From positions 1 through 55,755 of the forward strand of contig JAJYHZ010000001.1 of the NCBI GenBank assembly GCA_021796335.1: a DNA stretch of 55,755 nt, given 5' to 3'. Positions 8,472 through 19,255 of the stretch are shown piece by piece (positions within the stretch are counted from its first letter, which is position 1; each line of letters opens with the position of its first letter). Source of the DNA: a bacterium. GTDB lineage: Bacteria > Patescibacteriota > Minisyncoccia > UBA6257 > UBA9933. Made by a program: the position numbers and the translations under genes. A model generated the notes under the pieces. It did not search any database. It was not told where the DNA came from and worked only from the letters and a program-made list of their open reading frames with translations.

Positions 8472-9161
8472 TTATATAACTTTCGCTATTTGATTTAAAG
8501 CTGTCCTTGGGTCAATCCGGAATTTGTAAGGTTTAATTGACCATTTTGGTCCGGCATAATCCACGCCTGTCCTTTTTTTCGCCAGAATCTGCGACGGCCG
8601 TATTTTTATCCCGTATTCAAACCACAGGCTGTTTTCCGGTAGCGCTTTTTTCGTGTTGAGTTTCTTATTAATTTTCAGCGTTTTCGTAATCCTTGCCGGC
8701 CCGTTTATAAAATATTTTTTAATCGTTTCTTTTTCTTGTCTACTATCACGCGTGATAGTAAACAAGCCATCCGGAGATATTATCTTTTGTACGCCTTCAT
8801 ATGTGAAAGCATTATCATATGCGGTAATAGACAAAACCGGATTATTGTCCAATAAAATTCCTGCGCGAATTAAGATTGCCGCCGGATAATTTTTCGGCCC
8901 GGTTACGATATTTACCAGCCAGTGCATGCCGTAAGTGAAATAAATATAAAAAACACCGCCCTCCTCAAACATCGGTTTTGTTCTTTCTGTTCTACCGCGA
9001 TTGGCATGCGATGCTTTATCATGCGGCCCGTCATACGCTTCCACTTCCGTAATTAATAATTTCGATTCTTTCCCGCGGTATTTTCGTACCAAAACTTTTC
9101 CAAGTAAATCCTTTGCAGCTCGCAGTGTTTTCCGTTTGAAAAATTTATTTTTTAGAATCAT
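8472..9161 (-). CDS. mpg: DNA-3-methyladenine glycosylase (MPG/AAG family) with internal insertion
   Basis: AKDLLGKVLV, ITEVEAYDG, ASHA, YIYFTYGMHW, AAILIRA, NGPARIT, RTGVDYA motifs. Confidence 0.92.
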   Translation of the reverse strand: MILKNKFFKRKTLRAAKDLLGKVLVRKYRGKESKLLITEVEAYDGPHDKASHANRGRTERTKPMFEEGGVFYIYFTYGMHWLVNIVTGPKNYPAAILIRAGILLDNNPVLSITAYDNAFTYEGVQKIISPDGLFTITRDSRQEKETIKKYFINGPARITKTLKINKKLNTKKALPENSLWFEYGIKIRPSQILAKKRTGVDYAGPKWSIKPYKFRIDPRTALNQIAKVI

Positions 9162-9181
9162 TTATTTATTATATCAAATTT

Positions 9182-9208
9182 AAAAGGGCTTCTTGAGAAA
9201 GCCCTTTT
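9182..9208. terminator. intrinsic terminator hairpin
   Basis: AAAAGGGCTT / AAGCCCTTTT 10-bp arms, immediately downstream of the 9225-9572 minus-strand gene. Confidence 0.7.
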
Positions 9209-9224
9209 GAGATACGAGCGTCAT

Positions 9225-9572
9225 TTATGGTTCAAACCCCATTTTTTTAGCGAATATTTTTCTCCACGCACCGGATTTAATCTGGCGCGCGGTAAAAAAC
9301 ATCACTTTACTAGCGATAACCTCCACGTCTTGCCTAGGGCCGAACTTCTGGAACCCTTTCAGAATTATAGGAACATAATTGTCATCGCTGCTAAAGAGGC
9401 GAAAGTAAGGCATTGGTTTTTGGTTTCTGTCGCAAGACTCCACCCTGCTGGGGACGATGTCCGTGATAGCCTCTTTCTCAATGCCATACATACGCATGCA
9501 ATAATCTATCTCCACTTTAAGATTTTTCGCCCTCTTTTCACCATAACCTCTGAGTTCGATATTAGGCATCAT
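9225..9572 (-). CDS. hypothetical protein
   Basis: 115 aa ORF with GAGGT Shine-Dalgarno 4 nt upstream, an upstream promoter-like site and a downstream terminator. Confidence 0.7.
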   Translation of the reverse strand: MMPNIELRGYGEKRAKNLKVEIDYCMRMYGIEKEAITDIVPSRVESCDRNQKPMPYFRLFSSDDNYVPIILKGFQKFGPRQDVEVIASKVMFFTARQIKSGAWRKIFAKKMGFEP

Positions 9573-14196: not shown

Positions 14197-15201
14197 TTAA
14201 AAGTCGCCGGGATCCAAATGTGTGGAATACTTATCAAGATAGGGCAGAGGCGTGTCCGCGCATATGAATGTGGCTACCACTTCTCCTTTGGAATTTCTGA
14301 ATTTATCAAAATCAGCCGAATTATTTTTTAGAAATTTAAGAAGTCCCGCCAGGGCAAGGCCGGAGCTAGGGCCGGCCATAATTCCGGCTCTGCACAATTC
14401 CAGGCTGTTTTTGAACGATTCTCTTGTTTCTGCTTCAATTTTATAATCTATCGCCTTATTCCAATCCAATTTGATTTCTTTCAGTCTTTTCTCGTTTCGC
14501 ACTCCTGGAACCGCATGTTTGGGCGCGCAAAGCGTTCCGACAATGGCTATGTTTTTCGATTTTTTTCTGAAATAATTGCTGGCTCCGACAACCGTTCCCG
14601 AAGTCCCGAGGGCCGCGCAGAAAATCGTAAGATCACTTCCCAATTGATTCCAAATTTGATGAGTTGTCCATTTCTCATGCGCCGATCCGTTTGCTTTATT
14701 TTCGTACTGCGCCGGATTGAAATGATTTTTCTTTTTGCCCATTCGGCGCGCCTTTTCTATTCCGCTTGGCTTACCGGGCAATTCTTCGTTGAATACTAGC
14801 TCCGCTCCAAAAAGCCGCAGTAATTCCAATTTCCCCGGAGCGATATCTTTTGGAACAATTGCTTTTACGTTGTTTATTCCAAACAGCGGAGCGATAGCCG
14901 CAAGCGAAAAAGCCGTATTCCCCGAAGAATGTTCCACTATCGTATCCACTCCCTTGAGTTCTCCCGCTTTTTTCGCTTCGAAAAGCATGTTTAAAGCAGT
15001 TAATGACTTTAAATTTAAAAGCGGCAGAAGATACATCAGTTTCGCAAAAATCCTGACTTTGTTTTTGGCAAAAGGGTTTAAACGCCCCGGTAATTCCACA
15101 AGCGGCGTTGGCAGATTATTGTCCGGATTCAAAAAATCAAGAATTGCGCGCGATCCCTTAAAAACATTTGAAGACTCTCTTTTTTTATTTCCGTTTTTCA
15201 T
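14197..15201 (-). CDS. PLP-dependent cysteine synthase-like enzyme (divergent subfamily)
   Basis: PTPLVEL, AKLMYLLPLLNLKS (PLP Lys), SSGNT, NPAQYEN, LGTSGT, GPSSGLA; ATG at 15201. Confidence 0.87.
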   Translation of the reverse strand: MKNGNKKRESSNVFKGSRAILDFLNPDNNLPTPLVELPGRLNPFAKNKVRIFAKLMYLLPLLNLKSLTALNMLFEAKKAGELKGVDTIVEHSSGNTAFSLAAIAPLFGINNVKAIVPKDIAPGKLELLRLFGAELVFNEELPGKPSGIEKARRMGKKKNHFNPAQYENKANGSAHEKWTTHQIWNQLGSDLTIFCAALGTSGTVVGASNYFRKKSKNIAIVGTLCAPKHAVPGVRNEKRLKEIKLDWNKAIDYKIEAETRESFKNSLELCRAGIMAGPSSGLALAGLLKFLKNNSADFDKFRNSKGEVVATFICADTPLPYLDKYSTHLDPGDF

Positions 15202-15208
15202 AATAAAA

Positions 15209-16264
15209 TTATTTTTTCCGCACAATGCAAAACGGCGTCATCTCATCCGACTGGCCCAGGGGATTATCCTTAAAAAGCTTGCCGATGAAATTTTCGCTGA
15301 TTTTTCCCGTTGATTTTCCCAAAGAAAATGCTCCACGGTAATTTGCATCCAGAATAACAGCCTCGCATCCGATTTCATTCTTTATGCGTCTCGCAGCTCC
15401 GTTTGGATTATTCGGCGCAAGTTTTACCGAATGAGCGTATTCTAAAATAAGAAAAGACATCGGACAATCGACTGATTTCGCCAGTTTCCCGGAAATCCTG
15501 TAAAACAAACCGCGAATGCCAAGCGGCCGCGTTATAGCTGAAACGACTGCGGCCAAAAAAATACGCAAATACCCGGCTTCTCCTATGAATGATTGCATTG
15601 CGATGGCGGTGCCATGGCCGAATCCCCGGAATTCATTTGAGCCGTAATAATTGCCGACATTTCGGGCAAGAAATCGCGCGAATGATGTTGGCTTTATTTC
15701 ACTCATATCAATCACACGTCCCTGGGTAATTGTAAGCGCCTTTTCGCTTACAAAAAGGATGTCGCCTGGTTTAATATAAGGATGGACGTACTCTTTAATA
15801 ATCGGCAGGATATCTTTGTCTTGCATGGTGATAAGCCGGGTTTTTACCGGTAACCGTTGATAAATAATCCCGTCAACGTCAATGTCGATTTTTTTGCCGG
15901 GATTCGGGATAAATTCACCGGATGGCGAAGGCGATTGTTTGTCAGGTTTTTCAAAAATGACTTTTTCTCCCCGGAAAAGAGCGAATAATTTTTCTACAAG
16001 GGTTTTTATATTATTCGGGTTATCGTGAATAGCTGTTCGAGATTGCAAAAGTTCCGTTGCTTCCATATATAAGATATGCGCCTCATCTGCGGTATTTGTT
16101 GTAAATATGGCTTCTGCCAAAACTGCATTATTGCTTGCCGATAAAACTCGCATAATTATCGAACCGTTTTCTCTGGACAGGTAATTAATAATCAAACCAG
16201 TCTGATCTTTTACTTCGTCATAGACCAAGGGTTTTTCCATAATTTTTATATTATCATCTGCCAT
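15209..16264 (-). CDS. CofE-like (F420-0:gamma-glutamyl ligase family) protein with extra N-terminal domain
   Basis: LPVKTRLI, GDILFVSEKA...QGR, ILDAN, DNPLGQSDEMTP; about 120 aa unassigned N-terminal extension. Confidence 0.75.
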   Translation of the reverse strand: MADDNIKIMEKPLVYDEVKDQTGLIINYLSRENGSIIMRVLSASNNAVLAEAIFTTNTADEAHILYMEATELLQSRTAIHDNPNNIKTLVEKLFALFRGEKVIFEKPDKQSPSPSGEFIPNPGKKIDIDVDGIIYQRLPVKTRLITMQDKDILPIIKEYVHPYIKPGDILFVSEKALTITQGRVIDMSEIKPTSFARFLARNVGNYYGSNEFRGFGHGTAIAMQSFIGEAGYLRIFLAAVVSAITRPLGIRGLFYRISGKLAKSVDCPMSFLILEYAHSVKLAPNNPNGAARRIKNEIGCEAVILDANYRGAFSLGKSTGKISENFIGKLFKDNPLGQSDEMTPFCIVRKK

Positions 16265-16406
16265 TTTTTTGCACAAATAATATTTAAGCTGATGAGTATG
16301 GCTGTGTTATCGGAAACTTAAATCATCCCCGATGCCCTATTTCCGCGGCGGACTAAATTTATTTTAAATCTTGCTAATTCGTCCGCAATGGTTAATAATA
16401 ATAACA

Positions 16407-16784
16407 ATGCTTATACGTGTTTGCACGGGAAAAATTCACAGGGCGACAGTTACGCAAGCCGAACTACACTATGTCGGTTCCGTTACCATCGACGAAGAAC
16501 TGATTGAAAAAGCCGGTCTTAGACCGTTTCAAATGGTAAATATCAACAATCTGTCAAATGGCACTTTTTGGCAGACATATATTGTTGCCGGGAAAAGGCA
16601 TAGCGGTGACGTGTGTTTGAACGGACCGCCGGCCAGGCATTTTCATCCAGGAGATAAAGTCATAATATTGGGGGAATCGTATGTTGATCCGGCCGAAATG
16701 GATGATCTTAATCCCGTTGTGGTATTCGTTGATGACAATAATAAAATAACCGAAATAAAAAAACATAAAACGATTCGCAATTAA
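16407..16784 (+). CDS. panD: aspartate 1-decarboxylase (pyruvoyl-dependent)
   Basis: K9-I-H11-RATVT, self-cleavage site G24-S25 (YVGSVTID), T57-Y58, LNGPPAR, GDKVII. Confidence 0.93.
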   Translation: MLIRVCTGKIHRATVTQAELHYVGSVTIDEELIEKAGLRPFQMVNINNLSNGTFWQTYIVAGKRHSGDVCLNGPPARHFHPGDKVIILGESYVDPAEMDDLNPVVVFVDDNNKITEIKKHKTIRN

Positions 16785-16830: not shown

Positions 16831-17277
16831 ATGAGAGAAAAACCCCTTGTTTTAATAGTAGATGACGAACCTGATATCAGGGATTTGCTTAAATTTAAAT
16901 TAAGCGGCAACGGCTTTGACGTCGCTGAAGCCGGCGACGGCGTCGAAGGCGTTGAAATGGCTCGCAAAACCAAACCCGATATTATAATTATGGACCTTGT
17001 CATGCCGAGAATGGATGGCGCGGCAGCATTATTTAAAATCAAAGAAGATGAGGATCTTAAAGACATAAAGATATTCATGTTTACCGGCAAAGGCGATCCT
17101 CGTCCCGAATTCGCCGAAGTAAACCGCAAATTCGCTCGTGAAAGCGGTGCTGTTGATTTTATCCGGAAAGAAAGCGATCTTAATGAATTGGTCGCCAAGC
17201 TTCAACACACGGTTCAGGAAACAAGAGATGACGAAAAGTTTAAAGAGGAAAGAGAAAAGCTCCAAGAAGGAATTTAA
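16831..17277 (+). CDS. single-domain response regulator 1 (CheY-like)
   Basis: IVDDE, MDLVMP (phospho-Asp), FTGKG, FIRKE; short charged C-terminal tail. Confidence 0.92.
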   Translation: MREKPLVLIVDDEPDIRDLLKFKLSGNGFDVAEAGDGVEGVEMARKTKPDIIIMDLVMPRMDGAAALFKIKEDEDLKDIKIFMFTGKGDPRPEFAEVNRKFARESGAVDFIRKESDLNELVAKLQHTVQETRDDEKFKEEREKLQEGI

Positions 17278-18106: not shown

Positions 18107-18505
18107 ATGGATAAAAAACCTTTGGTTTTGATAATCGACGACGAAGAAGACATCCGCACTATGGTCAAATTAAAGCTGCAGGCTAACGGTTTTGATGTCA
18201 GAGAAGCCGGCGACGGGATCGAAGGATTCGATTTAGCCAAAGAAACAAAACCGAATTTGATTCTGCTTGATCTTGTCATGCCGACATTAAACGGCGTCGA
18301 AACTCTTTCCCGACTTAAAACCGAAGATTCCACCAAGGACATCAAGGTATTCCTATTCACCGGAAAAGGCGACCCGCGTCCGGATATAAATGAAGCCAGT
18401 AAACAATTTGCCATTCAAAACGGCGCCGTTGACTTCATCCGCAAAGAAACCGACTTAAATGAAATCGTCAATATCCTTAAAAAAGCAATCGGCATCAATG
18501 CTTAA
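18107..18505 (+). CDS. single-domain response regulator 2
   Basis: IIDDE, LDLVMP, FTGKGDPRP, FIRKE. Confidence 0.92.
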   Translation: MDKKPLVLIIDDEEDIRTMVKLKLQANGFDVREAGDGIEGFDLAKETKPNLILLDLVMPTLNGVETLSRLKTEDSTKDIKVFLFTGKGDPRPDINEASKQFAIQNGAVDFIRKETDLNEIVNILKKAIGINA

Positions 18506-18884
18506 ACAGCCCCTGGTTCTTATTGTGGATGATGAAGAATACATCCGCGAAATCATAAAAATTAAACTGGAAGCTAATGGCATAGAAGTAAAAGAAGCTG
18601 GTAACGGATCGGAAGGCTTAATTTTAGCCGTTAGATATATTCCCAATGTCATCCTATTGGATTTGATTATGCCGATTATGGGAGGGGTTGAAACTTTAGC
18701 TAAACTTCAGGCAAACGAAAAAACCAAGGACATCAAGGTATTCCTATTCACCGGAAAAGGCGACCCGCGTCCGGATATTACCGAAATGAGTAAAAAATTT
18801 GCCATTGACAGCGGCGCCGTTGACTTCATCCGCAAAGAAACCGACTTAAATGACATACTTAAGGAAATCCAAAAGTATATTTAA
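18498..18884 (+). CDS. single-domain response regulator 3
   Basis: ATG 18498 overlaps the RR2 stop; IVDDE, LDLIMP, FTGKGDPRP, FIRKE. Confidence 0.92.
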   Translation: MLKQPLVLIVDDEEYIREIIKIKLEANGIEVKEAGNGSEGLILAVRYIPNVILLDLIMPIMGGVETLAKLQANEKTKDIKVFLFTGKGDPRPDITEMSKKFAIDSGAVDFIRKETDLNDILKEIQKYI

Positions 18885-18894
18885 TAACCAAAAC

Positions 18895-19083
18895 ATGGAG
18901 ATAAAATTTTCAAAACTAGAGACAGTTTCCGGAGCGCCTTTGTGGGTTTTAAATATGCCATTCGCGGAATCGGTTGCGGCAGGCGTGTTTGTTCATACTG
19001 GAAAGAGTTATTATTGTGAAGCAAGGAAAGAGATTTTCGCGTACTTGCAAGAAAAAATTAAGCAGCTTGGATACAGACTTTAA
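18895..19083 (+). pseudogene. chimeric gene remnant: M16 peptidase N-terminus fused to an unrelated C-terminus (SPASM-like)
   Basis: MEIKFSKLETVSGAPLWVLNMPFAESVAAGVFVHTG matches M16 N-termini but HXXEH never follows; the ORF ends KSYYCEARKEIFAYLQEKIKQLGYRL. Confidence 0.55.
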
Positions 19084-19098
19084 GAAAGGAGGACTGCC

Positions 19099-19221
19099 AT
19101 GGAGGCTATTGCAGGCGTACTTGAAAGATCAGTAAGAAATGCCTGGAGTAACTGGCCGGATTGGGAAAACGATGACGAGTTCCCTGATTGGGAAAATGTT
19201 GGCGGAAATCCGCCTAGTTGA
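19099..19221 (+). CDS. 40-aa Trp/acid-rich peptide, putative RiPP precursor (not in ORF track)
   Basis: AAGGAGG at 19086-19092, ATG 6 nt later; MEAIAGVLERSVRNAWSNWPDWENDDEFPDWENVGGNPPS; TGA TAA double stop; terminator follows. Confidence 0.8.
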   Translation: MEAIAGVLERSVRNAWSNWPDWENDDEFPDWENVGGNPPS

Positions 19222-19225
19222 TAAA

Positions 19226-19255
19226 AAGGGCTGCCCTGGTTTGTGGGCAGCCCTT
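19226..19255 (+). terminator. intrinsic terminator-like hairpin after the peptide gene
   Basis: AAGGGCTGCCC-TGGTTTGT-GGGCAGCCCTT, a perfect 11-bp stem, followed by CCTCTTATTTT. Confidence 0.75.

Follow-up and report, generated by a model that had tools for sequence, protein, structure and literature searches.

In dynobactin and darobactin, tryptophan is linked to the C-beta of a residue two positions downstream. The aromatic-X-X3 triplet is the defining substrate motif of the triceptides (PMC11499958). Graspetide RiPP clusters were reported from CPR bacteria in 2022 (PMC8939145), so that the sequence-only reading of the present locus overstated its case in calling the lineage one not known for natural products. 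Here we describe a family of precursor peptides from Patescibacteria whose cores are built of such triplets, together with one copy that has probably been orphaned from its enzyme in the recent past. That copy lies in the window, by which we mean the whole 55,755-nucleotide (55.7-kb) stretch of DNA analysed, and it had been put forward as a multi-cyclophane RiPP precursor. For the family the proposal is upheld by adjacency to radical SAM/SPASM genes and by selection, with a chemistry that is predicted; for this locus it is not, as the maturase has been deleted, the HExxH partner is missing and the window holds no CxxxCxxC enzyme.

The precursor ORF itself is well formed (Table 1). Every sequence feature previously ascribed to it was found again, namely the ORF, its Shine-Dalgarno sequence and spacing, the double stop, the 11-pair stem, the internal near-duplication in which both WPDWEN and FPDWEN occur, and the five aromatic-X-(N/D) triplets (W16-S-N, W19-P-D, W22-E-N, F28-P-D and W31-E-N). 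The leader retains the A-I-x-G-x-L-x-R helix motif, whose A3, I4, G6, L8 and R10 are conserved in the family alignments, and lacks about 19 residues by comparison with most family members. The ORF had also been described as hidden and unannotated. Gene callers do find it: six public contigs of the same organism carry a called but unnamed protein identical to the 40-aa product.

Table 1. Features of the window around the tryptophan-rich ORF, in order of position.
Feature	Position	Strand	Details and basis
Receiver	16831	+	5' of the 62-aa ORF
Acyltransferase	17319	+	5' of the 62-aa ORF
Receivers (two)	18107, 18459	+	5' of the 62-aa ORF
62-aa ORF, deletion scar	18895-19083	+	Directly upstream of the peptide
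M16 (pitrilysin-type) peptidase remnant, codons 1 to ~36	18895-19002	+	5' half of the 62-aa ORF; BLASTP, tblastn
Radical SAM/SPASM maturase remnant, last ~27 codons and stop	19000-19083	+	3' half of the 62-aa ORF; BLAST, tblastn
Shine-Dalgarno AAGGAGG	19086-19092	+	6-nt spacer to the ATG at 19099; read from sequence
Trp-rich peptide ORF	19099-19221	+	40 codons; product MEAIAGVLERSVRNAWSNWPDWENDDEFPDWENVGGNPPS; read from sequence
Leader, residues 1-15	19099-19143	+	MEAIAGVLERSVRNA; family alignments
Core, residues 16-40, then TGA TAA	19144-19224	+	WSN WPD WEN DDE FPD WEN VGGNPPS
Double stop TGA TAA of the peptide ORF	19219-19224	+	
Intrinsic-terminator-like hairpin	19226-19255	+	11 pairs (8 G-C), 8-nt loop, then T-rich tail CCTCTTATTT; consensus scan
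Acyltransferase	19362	+	3' of the peptide
HAD hydrolase	20162	+	3' of the peptide
7TM-GAF histidine kinase	20828	+	3' of the peptide
gyrB		+	3' of the peptide

That this is a gene at all could be doubted at the outset. A word-indexed search with the peptide matched nothing beyond the peptide itself, Pfam and NCBIfam models matched neither it nor the 62-aa ORF upstream, and a literature search for the core motif strings returned no relevant paper; together with a length of only 40 codons, the lack of any Pfam, NCBIfam or literature match would suit an ORF that arose by chance, or a spacer without coding function in which a Shine-Dalgarno sequence happens to occur. That explanation is refuted, and we attach next to no probability to it, given some 20 homologues, invariant residues written with varied codons and a fixed position behind a maturase gene. 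The homologues came from a phmmer search of 1.84 billion representative proteins, which returned four short proteins (53-62 aa, E 5.7e-7 to 7.4e-4), and from a profile built on these, which extended the family to 21 members of 40-66 aa (the roughly 20 homologues spanning 50-66 aa). Against this profile the window peptide scores E 1.5e-11, with all nine invariant residues present.

Those nine residues, invariant across the 21-sequence alignment, are W16, N18, W19, P20, W22, F28, W31, E32 and G35; A3, G6, R10, D21, P29, N30, G36, P38 and P39 are near-invariant. The triplet aromatics are thus fixed, with N or D as X3 in almost every one of the 21 members. Purifying selection on the W/F-X-N/D positions, which the sequence-only reading had named as a point on which its proposal could fall, is strong: over the 20-codon core, ten independent loci give a pN of 0.15 against a saturated pS of 0.87, and the invariant residues are encoded by two to four different codons among the same loci, for which pN/pS in the leader is 0.46. 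Judged by sequence, then, the family is a genuine, conserved leader-plus-core precursor of Patescibacteria. More divergent relatives preserve the pattern in altered form. The peptide of locus L028 reads WRN-WED-WDD-YEN...WRE, and that of L032 (42 aa, 9156-9284) has the Tyr-based triplets YDD-YDD-WEN...WND; since the latter was missed by the peptide profile search, the family is broader than 21 sequences. The L032 contig comes from an ENA assembly numbered near the assemblies that contain the window locus.

The family also keeps constant company. In every homologue locus with enough flank (L007/L008/L012, L013, L015/16, L017, L020, L021, L024, L025/26, L027, L028, L030, L031 and L032), a Radical_SAM+SPASM gene ends 5-50 nt before the start of the peptide gene or slightly overlaps it, which answers in the affirmative the earlier suggestion to look for homologues near such genes. 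The adjacent enzymes are 361-397 aa long, with Pfam Radical_SAM and SPASM domains confirmed, and their cluster motifs are well kept (CxxxCxxC in 117 of 123 family enzymes, Cx2Cx5Cx3C in 121 of 123). They belong to a subfamily of 687 proteins at E <=1e-30, the best 120 of which share at least 49% identity with the query, and all of its named members are from Patescibacteria or Candidatus Wolfebacteria. We consider it very probable that the family consists of radical SAM-modified precursors.

A third gene completes the cassette. In 12 distinct cassettes across 16 loci, a convergent gene for a protein of 295-309 aa lies 3' of the peptide; its H197, E198, H201 and E229 are invariant and form an HExxH...E motif. 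The AlphaFold2 model of the protein is a confident one, with a pLDDT of 90.6, and a fold search with it against the PDB gave nothing significant (best E 1.2), M1 and M61 gluzincins being found only among the non-significant matches; a profile search against PDB sequences gave no match. We infer that the protein is a zinc leader peptidase. The cassette of peptide, maturase and HExxH protein is apparently undescribed in the family libraries and the literature searched.

Further genes accompany the cassette at some loci, for example an M16 peptidase or an ABC exporter, the ABC gene being confined to L027. At L024 (266-7707) a radical SAM gene without SPASM, the second of its kind at the locus, comes first; next are an M16 peptidase, the maturase, the peptide and the HExxH protein, and then a transglutaminase-like protein and a second HExxH paralogue that is 19% identical to the first and has the same invariant H, E, H and E. 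A Peptidase_M50 (site-2 protease) gene stands divergently upstream of the maturase in L020, L026 and L028, which may be plain synteny among relatives or mark an accessory protease. In L007/L008 (1700-4402) the cassette sits between integrase/transposase genes (rve, HTH) and is thus IS-flanked, and in place of the HExxH gene it has one for an unrelated protein of 262 aa without family match; these flanks and the replaced third gene suggest that the cassette moves horizontally. The 262-aa gene 3' of the L007 peptide was considered as the common third gene and set aside, as it has only 17% identity to the 299-aa HExxH family and belongs to this IS-flanked variant.

From these components a maturation route can be proposed, based on the pattern of triplets, on what defines a triceptide in the literature (PMC11499958) and on the resemblance of the enzymes, by HMM, to DynA, DarE and triceptide synthases (below). 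The A-I-x-G-x-L-x-R helix of the leader would guide the precursor to the radical SAM/SPASM enzyme, which would abstract a hydrogen from the side chain of X3 (N or D) and join X3 to the aromatic ring two residues upstream, to give up to five small rings; the leader would then be removed by the HExxH protein or, in some loci, by the M16 peptidase. On balance we would predict that the cross-links of the family are three-residue cyclophanes, running from the aromatic residue to C-beta, an expectation held with distinctly less confidence than that of radical SAM modification as such.

What distinguishes the window copy is the ORF immediately upstream of it, at the place where relatives have their maturase. 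As judged from the alignments that follow, this 62-aa ORF is a deletion scar, in which codons 1 to about 36 of an M16 peptidase run on, in frame, into the final ~27 maturase codons. On the M16 side, BLASTP aligns residues 1-48 of the ORF with residues 5-46 of the L024 M16 peptidase (40% identity, E 6e-9), of which residues 1 to about 36 are the M16-derived part; tblastn of the L024 M16 protein against the window gives E 4e-6, and Pfam leaves the M16 fragment undetected. On the maturase side, GKSYYCEARKEIFAYLQEKIK in the ORF matches the extreme C-terminus of family maturases (GKYYYCE[AT]RKxIFxYLKEK), and residues 36-57 (GKSYYCEARKEIFAYLQEKIKQ) align with residues 345-366 of the maturase P0025 at 64% identity (E 1e-9). 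Searched with a whole maturase by tblastn, the window yields a sole match at 19000-19065, a tail that also matches the L024 and L027 enzymes, and at the DNA level 18999-19056 shares 76% identity with the 3' end of the enzyme gene in L030. The closest maturase tail is that of P0067 (ending in GKYYYCEARKEIFEYLKKKLSLMGYVL and the stop), which terminates at the same position and reads ...LMGYVL where the window reads ...QLGYRL. The C-terminal tail of the L032 maturase is the one most similar to the window scar. The gene order of L024, M16 then maturase then peptide, is the order implied by the scar, and with L024 as ruler the loss comes to about 2.6-2.65 kb, beginning at codon 37 of M16 and reaching codon ~345 of the maturase. 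Because both segments of the scar are still near the family consensus, the deletion would be recent.

We therefore picture the history of the locus as follows. Intact cassettes hold three genes, with the radical SAM/SPASM gene upstream, the peptide in the middle and the convergent HExxH gene downstream; in this genome a single in-frame deletion would have removed most of the M16 gene and nearly the whole maturase, and the HExxH gene and exporter are absent as well. With the maturase cut down to its last ~27 codons, by a deletion of apparently recent date, the peptide would most likely be a leftover, and a recently orphaned relic is the account that we judge probable. The ORF could still be transcribed and translated by read-through from the receiver (response-regulator) operon, with a product that would be unmodified at the locus. 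What speaks against a relic is that scar and short leader are both in frame and that the peptide gene is without damage, its invariant residues, ribosome-binding site, double stop and terminator all being kept; because the deletion appears recent, however, an intact ORF says little either way. The short leader was weighed as a sign of decay and rejected as one: members of 53 aa (L030), 55 aa (L031) and 42 aa (L032) adjoin intact maturases, and the short leader of the window copy is for this reason best taken as natural length variation.

The same intactness could be read differently, as that of a functional precursor matured in trans by a radical SAM/SPASM enzyme encoded elsewhere, in a second cassette or by a paralogue. 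The gene is whole, with a perfect ribosome-binding site and a terminator; neither the N-terminal motif of the leader nor any invariant residue of the core is lost; other loci pair short-leader members with intact enzymes; and the two radical SAM genes near one cassette in L024 offer a precedent for more than one enzyme. We nevertheless think this unlikely, for the enzyme adjoins the peptide in all of the at least 13 intact loci, and no radical SAM enzyme is encoded within the 55.7-kb window, in which the CxxxCxxC motif occurs in no real ORF. Among the best 120 of the 687 maturase homologues, none lies on the 420,705-bp contig (420.7 kb) that carries the peptide. In four mine-drainage metagenomes that contain the organism, the locus is present without variants and no second copy of peptide or scar was found at >=80% identity; in one mine-drainage sample (run X2) the depth of the organism is about 235x. 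The HExxH partner and the exporter are likewise missing from the window: tblastn with maturase, HExxH, ABC and NUDIX proteins recovered only the 25-residue maturase tail, and the L027 HExxH protein had no match in the window at E 1e-3, where the peptide and the next gene are a mere 140 nt apart. Three metatranscriptomes from the same study were uninformative on expression of the ORF, as the organism itself went undetected in them, even by gyrB and nusG.

The neighbourhood supplies a further line of evidence for loss. The nearest syntenic relative of the window is a Candidatus Wolfebacteria MAG (GCA_024654025.1, locus L027), which agrees with the assignment of the host to the CPR made earlier, and its proteins are 67.6% (acyltransferase), 49% (HAD), 47% (7TM kinase) and 61% (receiver) identical to those of the window. 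In L027 (2281-11674) an intact maturase-peptide-HExxH cassette is bordered by acyltransferase-HAD-7TM-GAF kinase genes and, at its opposite end, by NUDIX-ABC exporter-acyltransferase-receiver genes, a signalling and lipid module that the window shares. Because the L027 cassette is whole and stands between these same genes, the window locus would be a decayed version of a cassette already in this neighbourhood; enzyme and peptide, as a unit, are oriented differently in the two genomes. The L027 locus begins with an MvdD-type ATP-grasp (graspetide-like) gene. In the window, the stand-alone receiver genes of 18107-18884, and also of 16831-17277, are recent duplicates that have blocks of identical DNA in common. 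Breaks in metagenome contigs fall at 18723-18752, and in one contig a joint goes back 391 nt (18811 to 18421), as would fit a tandem repeat that recombines or misleads the assembly. Further upstream, at 14197-16784, panD lies beside a pair of enzyme genes, one CofE-like (F420_ligase, a weak match) and one PALP, an odd small biosynthetic island for a reduced genome.

The signalling genes around the peptide invite two other readings. By the first, the peptide has been co-opted unmodified, as a small acidic Trp-rich protein that acts, for example, on the receivers or on the 7TM-GAF kinase and is kept by selection. It would fit that the peptide shares its orientation with three receiver genes and immediately precedes the acyltransferase-HAD-kinase module, that the same module houses the cassette in L027 and that the ORF and its signals are intact. 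However, the emphasis of the sequence-only reading on a signalling cluster is accurate for the window and L027 and does not extend to cassettes generally: these two are the only loci with the cassette inside the kinase module, most others lie in unrelated neighbourhoods (ribosomal genes, tRNA synthetases and IS elements, for example), and L005 and L006, which were found through the downstream acyltransferase, have the kinase module without any peptide. Furthermore, the well-preserved scar suggests that too little time has passed for intactness to mean selection, and the core pN of the window copy is somewhat raised (0.205 against 0.134 in the other members, a weak signal). We rate co-option as rather improbable. 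By the second, more speculative reading, the family would serve Patescibacteria as a diffusible signal that the adjacent 7TM-GAF kinase and receivers read. The organism of the window would then be a 'listener' or 'cheater', no longer a producer (maturase, peptidase and exporter being lost) but still in possession of its sensing genes and the precursor, or it would now use the unmodified peptide. The thought that the signal is read there comes from the placement of the cassette within the same kinase module in the window and in L027, and we regard the whole scenario as a long shot.

With the orphaned relic as the preferred account, the window becomes a clean example of cassette loss, in which one in-frame deletion would have left a precursor intact and orphaned, and it carries a warning that a convincing precursor ORF alone is no proof of a product being made. 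Beyond the window, the 687 enzyme homologues (E <=1e-30) indicate a widespread cassette in bacteria generally held to be biosynthetically poor, one that may yield peptides with up to five contiguous Trp/Phe rings.

How the family stands to characterized systems is best seen from its enzymes. The top-ranking HMM for them is that of the anaerobic sulfatase maturases (anSME, TIGR03942), which they match over the full length at 278-281 bits, and with which they share the CxxxCxxC and Cx2Cx5Cx3C motifs. They differ in falling below its cut-off of 349.45 and in having as neighbour a Cys-free peptide without the C/S-x-P-x-R sulfatase motif; no sulfatase gene was found near the family maturases in the loci examined.

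With the triceptides (XyeB/XncB, GrrM/OscB, FxsB, YhhB, AmcB, HtkB and HaaB synthases) the family shares a core of repeated aromatic-X-X3 triplets and, in the relatives of the window, a leader-plus-core precursor gene beside a radical SAM/SPASM gene; its enzymes match the triceptide-synthase HMMs at E 1e-27 to 1e-45. The corresponding scores are 96-154 bits, however, against cut-offs of 310-450, so that the enzymes of the relatives fail to join the curated cyclophane-synthase families (XyeB, GrrM/OscB, FxsB, YhhB and AmcB). The family is also set apart by an X3 that is N or D throughout, by three contiguous triplets (WxN-WPD-WxN), by a new HExxH protein as partner and by hosts among the Patescibacteria. 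In the window, unlike in the homologue loci, the synthase gene itself has been deleted to its last 22-27 codons.

Closest among the peptide maturases are the enzymes of dynobactin and darobactin, BamA-targeting peptides of Proteobacteria. DynA, DarE and DarW are, like the family enzymes, short RRE-less radical SAM/SPASM proteins (about 360-380 aa), the cores are Trp-rich in both cases, and the DynA model (NF041298) is the best peptide-maturase HMM for the family, matched over the full length at 230-252 bits. DarW, DarE, AmcB, GrrM/OscB, YhhB, XyeB and FxsB follow after anSME and DynA, all far under their cut-offs. As for the differences, the equivalog cut-offs of DynA (450) and of DarE and DarW (650 each) are missed, DarE (NF038005) being matched at 134-157 bits; the core, acidic and with five motifs, has no sequence relationship with WNWSKSF or the core of dynobactin; and the family has other taxonomy and lacks a DarBCD-type transporter set. 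Because every curated cut-off is missed, the maturases would form an uncurated lineage among the RRE-less peptide-cross-linking radical SAM/SPASM enzymes, placed between the sulfatase maturases and the dynobactin/darobactin synthases and with a previously unseen HExxH protein as its constant partner.
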